Assembly (NCBI RefSeq): GCF_053078305.1
Contig: NZ_CP166879.1
DNA: 64,000 nt
Reading direction: 5' to 3' (one strand)
A model generated the notes under the pieces. That model had not been told where the DNA came from. It worked only from the letters and a program-made list of their open reading frames with translations, and did not search any database. Below, piece by piece: positions 2 through 53,868 of this stretch. The first letter of the stretch is position 1; each line of letters begins with the position of its first letter. The translations under genes were made by a program, and so were the position numbers.

Positions 2-460
2 TTTTTGTTGATGGAAATTGTTATGCCTCAGATTAGCCGGACCGCACTGGTACCCTACAGCGCGGAGCAAATGTATCAGTTAGTGAATGACGTTCAGTCT
101 TATCCTCAGTTTTTGCCGGGTTGTACCGGAAGTCGGATTCTGGAGTCCACTCCTGGGCAGATGACTGCGGCGGTAGATGTCTCTAAGGCTGGGATCAGCA
201 AAACGTTTACTACCCGCAACCAGTTGACCAGTAACCAAAGTATTCTTATGAATCTGGTGGATGGGCCGTTCAAGAAATTGATTGGTGGATGGAAGTTTAC
301 GCCGCTGAGCCAGGAGGCGTGTCGTATCGAGTTTCATCTCGACTTTGAGTTTACCAATAAGTTGATTGAGCTCGCCTTTGGTCGCGTGTTTAAAGAGCTG
401 GCGTCTAATATGGTCCAGGCTTTTACGGTTCGTGCGAAAGAGGTTTACAGTGCCAGGTAA
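2..460 (+). CDS. ratA: Ribosome association toxin RatA (SRPBCC/polyketide cyclase-like); reading frame is open to the window edge, so the 5-prime end may be truncated
   Basis: Translation [33 protein letters not shown]... matches RatA/YfjG as recalled; in-frame ATGs at 11 and 23; overlaps ratB start. Confidence 0.85.
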
Positions 461-740
461 AATTGCCGTTGAGGTGGCTTATGCGCTACCTGAGAAGCAG
501 TACCTGCAGCGCGTGACGCTGCAGGAGGGCGCGACGGTTGAAGAAGCTATTCGCGCCAGTGGCTTGCTGGAATTGCGGACCGATATCGATTTAACTAAAA
601 ACAAAGTCGGCATTTACAGCCGTCCGGCAAAACTAAGCGATAGTGTGCATGATGGTGATCGGGTGGAGATTTATCGCCCTCTCATTGCCGATCCGAAAGA
701 GCTTCGCAGGCAACGAGCAGAAAAATCAGCGAATAAATAA
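450..740 (+). CDS. ratB: RatB (YfjF), 96 aa, GTG start overlapping the ratA stop
   Basis: Translation (V)[26 protein letters not shown]... ends at the ORF stop at 740; GTG at 450. Confidence 0.85.
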
Positions 741-16910: not shown

Positions 16911-16946
16911 ATCAATAAAAAAGGCCCCCCGATTTGGGAGGCCTTA
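16911..16946 (-). terminator. pheA attenuator (leader terminator)
   Basis: AAGGCCCCCCGATTTGGGAGGCCTT GC-rich hairpin with a U-run on the minus strand, between pheL and pheA. Confidence 0.85.
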
Positions 16947-16991
16947 TTGTTCGTCTTCGCATTCTGTTTCACACGACGAAACGCCTCCCAT

Positions 16992-17039
16992 TCAGGGGAA
17001 GGTAAAAAAGAATGCGAAGAAAAACGGTGTGTGTTTCAT
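16992..17039 (-). CDS. pheL: pheA leader peptide, 15 aa MKHTPFFFAFFFTFP (below the ORF-track size cutoff)
   Basis: Minus-strand ATGAAACACACACCGTTTTTCTTCGCATTCTTTTTTACCTTCCCCTGA; seven Phe codons in 15. Confidence 0.9.
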   Translation of the reverse strand: MKHTPFFFAFFFTFP

Positions 17040-17142
17040 GTTTGTTTCCTTAAGTGACTTTAGTACAGTACCCGTACTGTTTTCACGCTGTCAACAAAAA
17101 ACGCGCCCGAAGGCGCGTTGGCGATACACTCAATATAAAGGA

Positions 17143-20335: not shown

Positions 20336-20395
20336 CCTAAAGAATCAAGACGATCCGGTACGCGTGATTTTCTTTTCACATTAATCTGGTCAATA

Positions 20396-20427
20396 ACCTT
20401 GAATAATTGAGGGATGACCTCATTTAA
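20396..20427 (+). promoter_or_regulatory. sigma32 heat-shock promoter of clpB
   Basis: CCTTGAATAA (-35), 13-bp spacer, CCTCATTTA (-10), about 40 bp upstream of the clpB start. Confidence 0.75.
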
Positions 20428-20464
20428 TCTCCAGTAGCAACTTTGATCCGTTATGGGAGGAGTT

Positions 20465-23038
20465 ATGCGTCTGGATCGTCTTACTAATAAATTCCAGCTT
20501 GCTCTTGCCGATGCCCAATCACTTGCACTCGGGCACGACAACCAATTCATCGAACCACTTCATTTAATGAGCGCCCTGCTGAATCAGGAAGGGGGTTCGG
20601 TTAGTCCTTTGTTAACATCAGCTGGCATAAATGCTGGCCAGTTGCGCACAGATATCAATCAGGCATTAAATCGTTTACCGCAGGTTGAAGGTACTGGTGG
20701 TGATGTCCAGCCATCACAGGATCTGGTGCGCGTTCTTAATCTTTGCGACAAGCTGGCGCAAAAACGTGGTGATAACTTTATCTCGTCAGAACTGTTCGTT
20801 CTGGCGGCACTTGAGTCTCGCGGCACGCTGGCCGACATCCTGAAAGCAGCAGGGGCGACCACCGCCAACATTACTCAAGCGATTGAACAAATGCGTGGAG
20901 GTGAAAGCGTGAACGATCAAGGTGCTGAAGACCAACGTCAGGCTTTGAAAAAATATACCATCGACCTTACCGAACGAGCCGAACAGGGCAAACTCGATCC
21001 GGTGATTGGTCGTGATGAAGAAATTCGCCGTACCATTCAGGTGCTGCAACGTCGTACTAAAAATAACCCGGTACTGATTGGTGAACCCGGCGTCGGTAAA
21101 ACTGCCATCGTTGAAGGTCTGGCGCAGCGTATTATCAACGGCGAAGTGCCGGAAGGGTTGAAAGGCCGCCGGGTACTGGCGCTGGATATGGGCGCGCTGG
21201 TGGCTGGGGCGAAATATCGCGGTGAGTTTGAAGAACGTTTAAAAGGCGTGCTTAACGATCTTGCCAAACAGGAAGGCAACGTCATCCTGTTTATCGACGA
21301 ATTACATACCATGGTCGGCGCGGGTAAAGCCGATGGCGCAATGGACGCCGGAAACATGCTGAAACCGGCGCTGGCGCGTGGTGAATTGCACTGCGTAGGT
21401 GCCACGACGCTTGACGAATATCGCCAGTACATTGAAAAAGATGCTGCGCTGGAACGTCGTTTCCAGAAAGTGTTTGTTGCCGAGCCTTCTGTTGAAGATA
21501 CCATTGCGATTCTACGTGGCCTGAAAGAACGTTACGAATTGCACCACCATGTGCAAATTACTGACCCGGCAATTGTTGCAGCGGCGACGTTGTCTCATCG
21601 CTACATTGCTGACCGTCAGCTGCCGGATAAAGCCATCGACCTGATCGATGAAGCAGCATCCAGCATTCGTATGCAGATTGACTCAAAACCAGAAGAACTC
21701 GACCGACTCGATCGCCGTATCATCCAGCTCAAACTGGAACAACAGGCGTTAATGAAAGAGTCTGATGAAGCCAGTAAAAAACGCCTGGATATGCTCAACG
21801 AAGAACTGAGCGACAAAGAACGTCAGTACTCCGAGTTAGAAGAAGAGTGGAAAGCAGAGAAGGCATCGCTTTCTGGTACGCAGACCATTAAAGCGGAACT
21901 GGAACAGGCGAAAATCGCTATTGAACAGGCTCGCCGTGTGGGGGACCTGGCGCGGATGTCTGAACTGCAATACGGCAAAATCCCGGAACTGGAAAAGCAA
22001 CTGGAAGCCGCAACGCAGCTCGAAGGCAAAACTATGCGTCTGTTGCGTAATAAAGTGACCGACGCCGAAATTGCTGAAGTGCTGGCGCGTTGGACGGGGA
22101 TTCCGGTTTCTCGCATGATGGAAAGCGAGCGCGAAAAACTGCTGCGTATGGAGCAAGAACTGCACCATCGCGTAATTGGTCAGAACGAAGCGGTTGATGC
22201 GGTATCTAACGCTATTCGTCGTAGCCGTGCGGGGCTGGCGGATCCAAATCGCCCGATTGGTTCATTCCTGTTCCTCGGCCCAACTGGTGTGGGGAAAACA
22301 GAGCTTTGTAAGGCGCTGGCGAACTTTATGTTTGATAGCGACGAGGCGATGGTCCGTATCGATATGTCCGAGTTTATGGAGAAACACTCGGTGTCTCGTC
22401 TGGTTGGTGCGCCTCCGGGATATGTTGGTTATGAAGAAGGTGGCTACCTGACCGAAGCTGTGCGTCGTCGTCCGTATTCCGTTATCCTGCTGGATGAAGT
22501 GGAAAAAGCGCATCCGGATGTCTTCAACATTCTGTTGCAGGTACTGGATGATGGGCGTCTGACTGACGGGCAGGGGAGAACGGTCGACTTCCGTAATACG
22601 GTTGTCATTATGACCTCTAACCTCGGTTCCGATTTGATTCAGGAACGCTTCGGTGAACTGGATTATGCGCACATGAAAGAGCTGGTGCTCGGTGTGGTTA
22701 GCCATAACTTCCGTCCGGAATTCATTAACCGTATCGATGAAGTGGTGGTCTTCCATCCGCTGGGTGAACAGCACATTGCGTCGATTGCGCAGATTCAGTT
22801 GAAACGTCTGTATAAACGTCTGGAAGAACGTGGTTATGAAATCCACATTTCTGACGAGGCGCTGAAACTGCTGAGCGAGAACGGTTACGATCCGGTCTAT
22901 GGTGCACGTCCTCTGAAACGTGCAATTCAGCAGCAGATCGAAAACCCGCTGGCACAGCAAATACTGTCTGGTGAATTGGTTCCGGGTAAAGTGATTCGCC
23001 TGGAAGTTAATGAAGACCGGATTGTCGCCGTCCAGTAA
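20465..23038 (+). CDS. clpB: Chaperone ClpB (AAA+ disaggregase)
   Basis: [27 protein letters not shown]...; two AAA+ modules (GEPGVGKT and GPTGVGKT); 857 aa from the ATG at 20465. Confidence 0.96.
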
Positions 23039-23481: not shown

Positions 23482-25023
<1,542 letters not shown>

Positions 25024-25108
25024 CCTTAAAGAAGCGTACTTTGCAGTGCTCACACAGATTGTCTGATAGAAAGTGAAAAGCAAGGCGTCTTGCGAAGCAG
25101 ACTGATAC

Positions 25109-25184
25109 GTCCCCTTCGTCTAGAGGCCCAGGACACCGCCCTTTCACGGCGGTAACAGGGGTTCGAATCCCCTAGGGGACGCCA
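25109..25184 (+). tRNA. gltW: tRNA-Glu (UUC) in the 16S-23S spacer
   Basis: GTCCCCTTCGTCTAGAGGCCCAGGACACCGCCCTTTCACGGCGGTAACAGGGGTTCGAATCCCCTAGGGGACGCCA, 76 nt with CCA end. Confidence 0.97.
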
Positions 25185-25377
25185 CTTGCTGGTTTGTGAG
25201 TGAAAGTCACCTGCCTTAATATCTCAAAACTCATCTTCGGGTGATGTTTGAGATATTTGCTCTTTAAAAATCTGGATCAAGCTGAAAATTGAAACACTGA
25301 ACAACGAGAGTTGTTCGTGAGTCTCTCAAATTTTCGCAACACGATGATGAATCGAAAGAAACATCTTCGGGTTGTGA

Positions 25378-28280
<2,903 letters not shown>

Positions 28281-28373
28281 ACAACGCCGAAGATGTTTTG
28301 GCGGATTGAGAGAAGATTTTCAGCCTGATACAGATTAAATCAGAACGCAGAAGCGGTCTGATAAAACAGAATT

Positions 28374-28493
28374 TGCCTGGCGGCCTTAGCGCGGTGGTCC
28401 CACCTGAACCCATGCCGAACTCAGAAGTGAAACGCCGTAGCGCCGATGGTAGTGTGGGGTCTCCCCATGCGAGAGTAGGGAACTGCCAGGCAT
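28374..28493 (+). rRNA. rrfG: 5S ribosomal RNA
   Basis: TGCCTGGCGGCC...GGGAACTGCCAGGCAT, 120 nt. Confidence 0.97.
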
Positions 28494-45630: not shown

Positions 45631-46586
45631 TGAAGCAACTTTGGTTTGCCATGTCATTAGTGACAGGTAGCCTGTTATTCTCTGCTAACGCCTCGGCCAC
45701 TCCCGCGTCCGGGGCGTTATTACAGCAGATGAACCTGGCCAGTCAGTCACTGAATTACGAGCTGTCATTCATCAGCATCAATAAACAGGGTGTTGAGTCT
45801 CTGCGTTATCGACATGCACGCCTCGATAACCGTCCTCTTGCACAATTGTTGCAAATGGATGGCCCGCGCCGGGAAGTGGTACAGCGCGGCAATGAAATCA
45901 GCTATTTTGAACCGGGCCTTGAACCGTTTACTCTTAATGGCGATTACATTGTTGATTCTCTGCCATCGCTCATCTATACCGATTTCAAACGCCTTTCTCC
46001 TTACTACGACTTTATCTCCGTCGGGCGCACGCGTATTGCTGATCGTCTTTGTGAAGTTATTCGCGTGGTTGCTCGTGATGGCACACGCTACAGCTACATC
46101 GTGTGGATGGACACCGAATCGAAATTACCGATGCGGGTTGATCTTCTTGATCGCGATGGTGAAACGCTGGAACAATTTCGCGTGATTGCTTTTAACGTCA
46201 ATCAGGATATCAGCAGCAGTATGCAGACGCTGGCGAAGGCAAATTTGCCGCCGTTGCTTTCTGTTCCTGTAGGTGAAAAAGCTAAATTCAGCTGGACGCC
46301 AACCTGGTTGCCACAGGGTTTTAGCGAAGTTTCCAGTAGTCGACGTCCGCTACCGACGATGGACAACATGCCTATCGAATCACGTCTCTATTCCGACGGA
46401 TTATTCAGCTTCTCGGTAAACGTTAACCGCGCTACGCCATCGAGCACCGATCAGATGTTGCGCACCGGACGCAGAACCGTCAGTACAAGCGTACGTGATA
46501 ACGCTGAAATCACCATTGTCGGTGAACTGCCGCCGCAAACGGCGAAACGCATTGCCGAGAATATTAAGTTCGGGGCAGCGCAATGA
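45630..46586 (+). CDS. rseB: SigmaE regulatory protein RseB
   Basis: 318-aa ORF with signal peptide. Confidence 0.95.
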   Translation: MKQLWFAMSLVTGSLLFSANASATPASGALLQQMNLASQSLNYELSFISINKQGVESLRYRHARLDNRPLAQLLQMDGPRREVVQRGNEISYFEPGLEPFTLNGDYIVDSLPSLIYTDFKRLSPYYDFISVGRTRIADRLCEVIRVVARDGTRYSYIVWMDTESKLPMRVDLLDRDGETLEQFRVIAFNVNQDISSSMQTLAKANLPPLLSVPVGEKAKFSWTPTWLPQGFSEVSSSRRPLPTMDNMPIESRLYSDGLFSFSVNVNRATPSSTDQMLRTGRRTVSTSVRDNAEITIVGELPPQTAKRIAENIKFGAAQ

Positions 46587-47062
46587 TCAAAGAGTGGGCT
46601 ACCGTCGTCTCCTGGCAAAACGGGCAGGCGCTGGTCAGTTGTGATGTTAAAGCCTCATGCAGCAGCTGCGCTTCACGCGCCGGTTGCGGTAGCCGCGTGT
46701 TGAATAAACTTGGCCCGCAAACCACGCATACCATTGTCGTACCCTGTGATGAGCCGTTAGTGCCGGGGCAAAAAGTGGAATTGGGGATCGCCGAAGGCAG
46801 CCTGCTTAGCTCCGCATTACTGGTTTATATGTCGCCGCTGGTGGGATTATTCCTCATCGCTTCGCTATTTCAGCTACTCTTTGCTTCTGACGTCGCAGCA
46901 TTATGTGGTGCGGTCCTCGGCGGTATTGGCGGGTTCCTGATTGCGCGTGGCTACTCGCGTAAGTTTGCTGCCCGGGCAGAATGGCAACCGATCATCTTAA
47001 GCGTGGCATTGCCGCCTGGCCTTGTGCGATTTGAAACATCTTCGGAAGACGCGAGCCAGTGA
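46583..47062 (+). CDS. rseC: SigmaE regulatory protein RseC
   Basis: 159-aa ORF overlapping the rseB stop. Confidence 0.93.
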   Translation: MIKEWATVVSWQNGQALVSCDVKASCSSCASRAGCGSRVLNKLGPQTTHTIVVPCDEPLVPGQKVELGIAEGSLLSSALLVYMSPLVGLFLIASLFQLLFASDVAALCGAVLGGIGGFLIARGYSRKFAARAEWQPIILSVALPPGLVRFETSSEDASQ

Positions 47063-47259
47063 TTTCACTGGCTTTGTTGCATTTTGCATAACAAATGCGA
47101 GGACGTTTCCAGATACCACAATCCATACGGTATGAACATTTCCTCGCCTCAATGTTGTAGTGTAGAATGCGGCGTTTCTATTAATACAGACGTTAAGCTC
47201 AGAACAGCGACTTCTAAAAGCCTGGTTAACCGGGCATTAAGGCACAATAATCATACTTT

Positions 47260-49059
<1,800 letters not shown>

Positions 49060-50101: not shown

Positions 50102-50291
50102 ATGAGATAAATCTCCCGTGGCTAACGACATCCCCCGTCGTTGTGTATAGAATATTCCCCCGAAGTTTAAGGTTGGCACCTCCAGGTTGCCACGGCACAC
50201 GAAACAGCGTTGGTCCCCATATACCGCTAAACTGAAACTGCAGCGAAGCAGTTAGCAGAGCCATGTATATCAGGTCTGTTTCGTGTGCTGA

Positions 50292-51904
<1,613 letters not shown>

Positions 51905-53767: not shown

Positions 53768-53791
53768 AAATAATACCGTTCTCTTTAAAAA

Positions 53792-53835
53792 GTAAAACCC
53801 CCGAACTGGTAAGGAACGGGGGTTTTACTTTGTAA
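53792..53835 (+). terminator. acpS operon terminator
   Basis: GTAAAACCCCCG...CGGGGGTTTTAC hairpin followed by TTTGTAACTTT. Confidence 0.8.
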
Positions 53836-53844
53836 CTTTAATTT

Positions 53845-53868
53845 AGTGCAGCACGCACCCTCAACAAC
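53845..53868. repeat. 24-nt element, copy 1 of an imperfect direct repeat (second copy at 54093-54116)
   Basis: AGTGCAGCACGCACCCTCAACAAC; contains the internal palindrome GTGC...GCAC. Confidence 0.6.

Follow-up and report, generated by a model that had tools for sequence, protein, structure and literature searches.

Coq10 proteins, represented by yeast Coq10 and human COQ10A/B, and the Caulobacter protein CC1736 (PDB 1t17) are the closest described relatives of bacterial RatA (PasT), and share with it a single lipid-binding START/SRPBCC domain of about 145 residues. The likeness extends to function: RatA is reported to be a Coq10 homologue that binds ubiquinone (PMC7424257; bioRxiv 10.64898/2026.05.04.722385), and human COQ10 complements the Escherichia coli mutants. 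Indeed, Fino et al. described respiratory and oxidative-stress phenotypes for ratA that were rescued by human COQ10, and observed no toxicity and no toxin–antitoxin behaviour (PMC7424257). A 2026 preprint by Fasnacht et al. reports that RatA binds ubiquinone-8 and interacts with the ubiquinone biosynthesis metabolon, and proposes the name UbiM (bioRxiv 10.64898/2026.05.04.722385). RatA differs from Coq10 in being a bacterial, cytosolic protein without a mitochondrial targeting sequence, and also in its genetic setting, since in the beta- and gammaproteobacteria ratA is followed by an overlapping gene of the RnfH family, whereas Coq10 loci are without one.

The product of this second gene, RatB (PasI), has its closest described relatives in RnfH of Azotobacter vinelandii RNF1 (PDB 8ahx, chain H) and in Haemophilus HI0395 (PDB 2hj1), with which it shares the Ub-RnfH domain and the lack of a cofactor. 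Within RNF1, the RnfH subunit is cytoplasmic, carries no cofactor and touches both RnfB and RnfC (PMC12174285), and an RnfB homologue is bound by a RatB-like protein of Legionella (PMC11445079). With type II toxin–antitoxin systems such as RelBE and MazEF the ratAB pair shares its layout, a small operon of two genes whose open reading frames overlap, and historically it was annotated as one of them. The arrangement also resembles that of translationally coupled overlapping bacterial gene pairs (of the ATGA and TAATG types, and longer), in that the start codon and Shine–Dalgarno sequence of ratB are conserved within the last codons of ratA; the ratAB overlap of 11 nt, however, exceeds the commonest classes of 1 and 4 nt.

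The locus described here lies at the left edge of a 64,000-nt stretch of DNA, which is referred to as the window. At positions 1–1200 the window shows 100% identity to a number of E. coli chromosomes, and of 5426 complete E. coli genomes 5425 carry the ratAB locus at an identity of at least 95%, in a median of one copy; 5432 of the 5433 places at which it was found in these genomes are chromosomal. RefSeq labels the genes of this region ratA and yfjF (RnfH family protein), followed by a convergent bamE and then by recN and nadK, with smpB and ssrA upstream of ratA in divergent orientation. The smpB/ratAB/bamE gene order is fixed across the Enterobacteriaceae and is retained in distant relatives down to 36–42% identity. 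The first-pass annotation had named the two genes ratA and ratB; these names held, given the identity to E. coli chromosomes and the agreement of the Pfam and NCBIfam assignments. It had also proposed alignment with K-12, and this revealed six SNPs in 780 nt, a single changed residue in RatA and an identical RatB.

The feature is thus the ordinary, conserved ratA–ratB (pasT–pasI) pair of the E. coli core genome, and as such is already known. Positions 1–776 would comprise the complete transcribed ratAB operon, promoter excluded. The overall reading favoured here, to which we assign a probability of about 0.9, is that of an operon with the anatomy set out below, encoding a Coq10-type RatA and an RnfH-type RatB that together do not form a toxin pair. 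Three antisense open reading frames (80–337, 106–273 and 479–613) were treated as chance frames within strongly supported genes, and an Rfam scan of the whole window returned no RNA family within positions 1–800.

The ratA coding sequence (pasT; proposed name ubiM) occupies positions 23–460 on the plus strand and encodes 145 residues, as annotated in the RefSeq PGAP CDS. The protein matches the Pfam START/polyketide-cyclase family PF03364 over the whole profile (1–126 of 126; E = 8.8e-39, 133.1 bits against a cut-off of 23.4) and the NCBIfam equivalog model NF007999 with 304.7 bits against a threshold of 258 (E = 9.6e-92). Residues 7–143 align with CC1736 (1t17_A; E = 1.8e-19). RatA is therefore a single-domain START/SRPBCC protein of the Coq10 family and the bacterial counterpart of mitochondrial Coq10. 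From the published work, RatA would carry ubiquinone-8 between its biosynthetic complex and the respiratory chain.

These assignments bear on the label of ribosome-association toxin, which the first-pass annotation had given to RatA and which is superseded by the identification of the protein as a ubiquinone-binding Coq10 homologue (PMC7424257; bioRxiv 10.64898/2026.05.04.722385). Under that label ratAB is a type II toxin–antitoxin module in which RatA binds the 50S subunit and blocks 70S formation, and RatB is the antitoxin. RefSeq and NCBIfam product names still carry it (‘type II toxin-antitoxin system toxin RatA’), an operon of two overlapping genes is reminiscent of such modules, and over-expression of the annotated 158-residue open reading frame arrests growth, as described by Fasnacht et al. 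(PMC11988751); in one study the arrest was relieved by co-expression of pasI. Fasnacht et al., however, tie the toxicity to the artificial form, RatA-fl, and indicate that only this 158-residue form is toxic and that it is not made from the native locus (PMC11988751). Moreover, CFT073 and MG1655 showed no toxicity (PMC7424257). A ratB deletion is viable, no complex between RatA and RatB was found, and no neutralisation was seen on plates (bioRxiv 10.64898/2026.05.04.722385; PMC11988751).

The anatomy and distribution of the pair point in the same direction. In typical type II modules the antitoxin gene comes first and its product carries a DNA-binding or neutralising domain; here the order is reversed, with ratA before ratB, and RatB matches the Ub-RnfH beta-grasp family alone, with no DNA-binding domain among its Pfam matches. 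Type II modules tend to be patchy in distribution and are often multi-copy or mobile, whereas ratAB is a single-copy component of the core genome whose synteny persists across large evolutionary distances. Unlike RelBE and MazEF, then, ratAB is toxin-first, its supposed antitoxin can be deleted, and its toxicity is an artefact that arises when the gene is over-expressed from the wrongly annotated start. The earlier reports of toxicity are accounted for by over-expression of the mis-annotated form, which is 13 residues longer and has a hydrophobic N-terminus. Taken together, the pair does not behave as a toxin–antitoxin system by these measures, and the type II reading is effectively refuted; we regard it as very improbable indeed.

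The reading frame of ratA (frame 2) is free of stop codons from position 2 until the TAA at 458–460, which agrees with the earlier observation that the frame is open to the window edge. It had been supposed from this that the 5′ end of ratA might lie outside the window, and extension of the sequence upstream had been suggested. In the fetched upstream DNA the start codon of the legacy K-12 annotation, which gives a protein of 158 residues, is indeed found 17 nt upstream of window position 1; the frame remains open for six more codons only, up to this ATG, and an in-frame TAA directly precedes it. The supposition is correct for this legacy ATG, but not for the functional start, ATG 23–25 (‘Met14’ of K-12), which lies inside the window. 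A Shine–Dalgarno-like GGAAA at positions 13–17 is conserved 5 nt ahead of ATG 23, and the alignment to the NCBIfam model begins at the Met that this codon specifies.

Homologues from distant bacteria begin at the same residue. Among the 150 best representatives drawn from a library clustered at 50% identity, the first residue of 122 aligns exactly with Met14, and that of 140 falls within three residues of it. Start codons were also compared across 80 species-level enterobacterial loci, in all of which a motif of the form ATGnTAnnAT, containing the legacy ATG, is present 38–40 nt upstream of the Met14 ATG. An open in-frame extension runs from this motif in 54 of the 80; in 14 a stop codon intervenes and in 12 the motif is out of frame, so that the extension is broken in 26 species while the ratA core is intact in every one. 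Because the motif is retained in all 80 species but is open in frame in only 54, its conservation is that of a DNA element rather than of a codon.

The pattern of variation within the extension leads to the same view. Across 68 species, the information per codon position in the ratA core was 1.81/1.94/1.00 bits, against a flat 1.12/1.04/1.26 bits in the 13-codon ‘extension’. Periodicity of the kind displayed by the core is the classic signature of coding sequence. Residues of the extension diverge freely, while a 13-residue stretch of the RatA core is nearly invariant. On this comparative evidence the ‘extension’ is promoter DNA that does not code for protein.

Published experimental data decide the matter in the same sense. 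In the study by Fasnacht et al. (PMC11988751), over-expression of RatA from the annotated open reading frame gave two proteins, which M1S and M14I mutants and intact mass measurements assigned to initiation at Met1 and Met14, and only the Met14 product was made from the native promoter. The same study places the transcription start downstream of Met1, by primer extension and dRNA-seq, and the –10 box inside the annotated open reading frame; the primer for the –10 mutant alters ATATTA immediately after Met1 (PMC11988751). From this published primer the –10 hexamer TATTAT is placed at window positions –12 to –7, and in our reading this hexamer and the TG of ‘Met1’ together make up an extended –10 element, TGnTATTAT. 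The operon would thus be served by a sigma-70 promoter of the extended –10 type (TGaTATTAT), situated 7–16 nt past the window edge and overlapping the old K-12 ‘start codon’. Judged from the position of the –10 box, transcription of ratAB would begin at about window position 1. Positions 1–22 on the plus strand, once read as codons 6–13 of the legacy 158-residue frame, would then form a 22-nt untranslated leader, as judged from the promoter position and the absence of codon periodicity; this leader would carry the GGAAA ribosome-binding site and be followed by the real start, ATG 23.

A consensus promoter scan of the smpB–ratA intergenic region did not report a plus-strand ratA promoter, owing to its poor –35 element; the promoter was instead placed from the primer published for the –10 mutant and from conservation across the 80 species. 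Just upstream of the extended –10, a conserved run of eight T residues and a small hairpin (AGCGCCGGGATAGCGTT followed by the T-run) occupy window positions –52 to –7 (2449–2493 of the fetched upstream sequence, L001), and the T-run hardly varies among 68 species. It may serve as a –35 element or an UP element, or it may be terminator-like. There may also be a second, stress-induced ratA promoter further upstream.

It could be argued that such an upstream promoter makes the 158-residue protein a genuine second isoform, produced under conditions that have gone unexamined and with its 5′ end beyond the window. Consistent with this, an AGGA lies just upstream of the legacy ATG, that ATG is open in frame in the 54 enterobacterial species noted above, and Fasnacht et al. 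leave room for an additional upstream promoter and report a signal-peptide-like N-terminus from SignalP (PMC11988751). Against it stand the disruption of the extension in 26 of the 80 species, its free divergence without coding periodicity, and its absence from 140 of the 150 distant homologues. Moreover, the short form alone was seen over growth phases and stresses (bioRxiv 10.64898/2026.05.04.722385; PMC11988751), and conservation of the ATG is explained by the role of its TG in the extended –10, in keeping with the reduction in mRNA caused by M1S (PMC11988751). A second isoform is thus highly unlikely, and the ratA coding sequence is complete inside the window; what lies outside is promoter. 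The comparative data provide independent, if only mildly new, support for the experimentally revised ratA start. Reliance on the outdated K-12 start and on the toxin names still in the databases leads to mis-assignment both of the function of RatA and of the boundary of its gene.

The second gene, ratB (pasI, yfjF), occupies positions 450–740 on the plus strand. GTG 450–452 opens a frame of 96 codons that is +1 relative to ratA and closes with TAA at 738–740. A TTG at position 366 was dismissed as a start and attributed to the habit of calling the longest open reading frame; GTG 450 is the annotated start and is positioned 6 nt after a GAGG at 440–443. The RatB protein matches the Ub-RnfH family PF03658 over the full profile (1–83 of 83; E = 3.2e-35, 120.7 bits against 23.7) and NCBIfam model NF002490 (E = 1e-45, 154.1 bits against 75), and aligns with HI0395 (2hj1; 6.4e-28) and with the RnfH chain 8ahx_H (1.5e-13). 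RatB is therefore an RnfH-type protein with a ubiquitin-like (beta-grasp) fold. Unlike rnfH of A. vinelandii, ratB stands beside ratA and outside any rnf/rsx operon: its neighbours are ratA and bamE, and the 64-kb window holds no rsx gene. In the K-12 annotation RatB is called a ‘putative component of the Rsx system’, a description that is inferred.

At the junction, the last 11 nt of ratA are also the first 11 nt of ratB (450–460, plus strand), as is evident from the open reading frames and from RefSeq. The first-pass annotation had described the ratB GTG as overlapping the ratA stop; the overlap of the two frames is real, but the GTG itself is located 5 nt before the TAA triplet, and the two codons are apart. 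The Shine–Dalgarno core of ratB, the GAGG at 440–443 on the plus strand, falls within Glu–Val codons of ratA. All 81 enterobacterial loci compared carry the arrangement GAG[GA]-N6-GTG within the 3′ end of ratA, so that a downstream start codon and its Shine–Dalgarno sequence are conserved inside the end of the upstream frame. The overlap measures 11 nt in 73 of these loci and 17 nt in the remaining eight, which belong to the Citrobacter freundii group and carry a 6-nt insertion. In these eight loci (L008–L012, L015, L016 and L018) the insertion takes the form of a GTGTCA-like duplication before the ratA stop, which lengthens RatA by two residues and provides two in-frame GTG candidates for the start of ratB. 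Of seven distant, unfused relatives (36–56% identity), six have overlaps of 4 nt (ATGTGA or GTGTGA) or 14 nt, and one is without ratB.

That the overlap persists through changes of sequence speaks for selection acting on linked expression. RatB would be translated from GTG 450 by way of the GAGG embedded in the last ratA codons, and the 11-nt overlap most likely ties its synthesis to ribosomes that are finishing ratA. Coupling of ratB translation to that of ratA, as inferred from the conserved overlap, is a plausible interpretation and the one that we favour, if with restrained confidence.

Possible mechanisms and direct evidence for coupling were considered. RNA structure that hides the ribosome-binding site of ratB was rejected as a mechanism, since the predicted fold of the junction (window 400–500) is no better than that of shuffled sequences (z = +0.63). 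A programmed frameshift giving an E. coli RatA–RatB fusion was likewise rejected, as a slippery site is missing and the two genes are read in different frames. Expression of ratB falls about 100-fold (log2 fold change –6.75) upon deletion of ratA (bioRxiv 10.64898/2026.05.04.722385). The strain in which this drop was observed is Keio JW2600. [quoted passage not shown] A deletion of that extent takes out the –10 box, so that transcription would probably be lost, which is the simpler cause of the drop in ratB; the result is not decisive as proof of coupling.

It may also be asked whether the overlap is incidental, with ratB translated independently from its own Shine–Dalgarno sequence and GTG and the conservation reflecting double coding constraint only. 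The strong GAGG with its ideal 6-nt spacing and the lack of any occluding RNA structure at the junction are compatible with this, as is the fact that the conserved AAAGAGGTTTAC also encodes the conserved C-terminal K-E-V-Y of RatA. Furthermore, ratA occurs without ratB in one distant relative (L092), and solitary ratA genes are common (PMC7424257). However, the overlaps of 4, 11, 14 and 17 nt, with varied sequence and at identities down to 36%, together with outright fusion of the genes in one clade, suggest that selection acts on linked, equimolar synthesis rather than on any given sequence. An incidental overlap is accordingly a possible but somewhat doubtful explanation, and coupled translation is preferred.

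The L092 locus (49% identity) keeps the order smpB–ratA–bamE, with ratA at 1501–1935 and bamE at 2114–2443 and no ratB between them, so ratB can be lost while ratA stays.

The fused genes provide a further view of the relationship between the two proteins. Two of the 150 RatA representatives are single polypeptides with both domains. The P0199 fusion is present on contigs of at least four independent samples that differ by 0–2 nt, and a search with P0199 returned about 35 further clusters, each a distinct 90%-identity cluster, in which both domains align over 96–100% of the length at 42–67% identity. The fusions (PF03364 followed by PF03658) are 234–303 residues long, and their alignment is collinear, with the RatA domain, a short variable linker and the RatB domain in succession. 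Some of the contigs concerned measure 1.9–2.8 Mb, and P0283, P0294 and P0295 are labelled as uncultured Gammaproteobacteria. The fused genes occupy the orthologous position, adjoining a divergent smpB; they were located in L086–L089 (622–1392 in L086), L097–L098 (2501–3232), L099 (2501–3403) and L085 (1014–1754). The fusion clade thus consists of natural gene fusions in operon order, and P0149 seems to lie outside the P0199 clade. Neither ‘fusion’ nor ‘fused’ is used as a word in PMC7424257 or in bioRxiv 10.64898/2026.05.04.722385.

E. coli-like RatA–RatB ‘fusions’ of 251 residues are also found in public assemblies (P0004 and P0021, with 12 and 29 member sequences). These result from a 1-nt deletion in the AAAGAGG at the junction (window 437–452) and are probably frameshift alleles or assembly errors, distinct from the true fusion clade.

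Natural fusions in operon order are Rosetta-stone evidence that RatA and RatB act together, and RatB most likely serves RatA as an accessory partner, not as an antitoxin. The fusion clade is mildly new, and offers a testable argument for RatB as the partner of a ubiquinone shuttle. In a stronger version the two proteins would form an obligate physical pair, in which RatB would act as an adaptor that docks the START protein with its bound ubiquinone onto a redox complex in the membrane, for example one that is RnfB/RsxB-like, because the conserved overlapping junction and the fusion clade point to equimolar joint action. If true, this would answer what RatB does, a question that arises from the RatA literature. 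An AlphaFold2 model of P0199, built from an alignment of 36 sequences, gave two confidently modelled domains (mean pLDDT 88.8) but a pTM of 0.59, with a disordered linker and no defined interface, and thus speaks neither for nor against a fixed contact between RatA and RatB. No complex formed between purified RatA and RatB in the original study, and ratA alone complements the phenotypes of ratAB mutants (PMC7424257; bioRxiv 10.64898/2026.05.04.722385). An obligate pair is thus put forward tentatively, as a rather unlikely possibility, and RatB as an accessory partner remains the preferred reading.

Downstream of ratB, RNA folding identified a probable bidirectional intrinsic terminator at positions 748–776, between the ratB stop (740) and the stop of the convergent bamE (802). 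The 13-bp stem of this hairpin, AAAAAAGGUGCUC-AUU-GAGCACCUUUUUU, is perfectly paired and lies between an A-tract and a U-tract. The predicted folding energy is –20.7 kcal/mol (z = –4.87), and none of 200 shuffled sequences folds as well. The hairpin probably terminates both the ratAB operon and bamE. A simple scan for terminators missed it, as the T-run forms part of the stem.

Beyond the operon, the first 1297 nt of the window are identical to strain 14EC033, while from position 1298 scattered SNPs appear, with about 30 in recN and more downstream; positional comparison with the 14EC033 record fails further downstream of the recN SNPs. The break at 1298 indicates either that the window is from another strain or that a recombination boundary lies near the 3′ end of recN. 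The remainder of the window, which extends from ratA as far as purL/qseE, is unremarkable core chromosome of E. coli. The intervals 16915–17040, 20346–20484, 23482–28491, 46547–47378 and 50162–50376 include the Phe leader, RyfD, a complete rRNA operon with tRNA-Glu, the AsrC antisense RNA and rncO. The same window also holds the type I toxin–antitoxin pair shoB/ohsC, with the ohsC RNA at 53789–53865 (Rfam RF02495, 103 bits) and shoB adjacent, which, in contrast to the mis-named ratAB, is a genuine toxin–antitoxin system.
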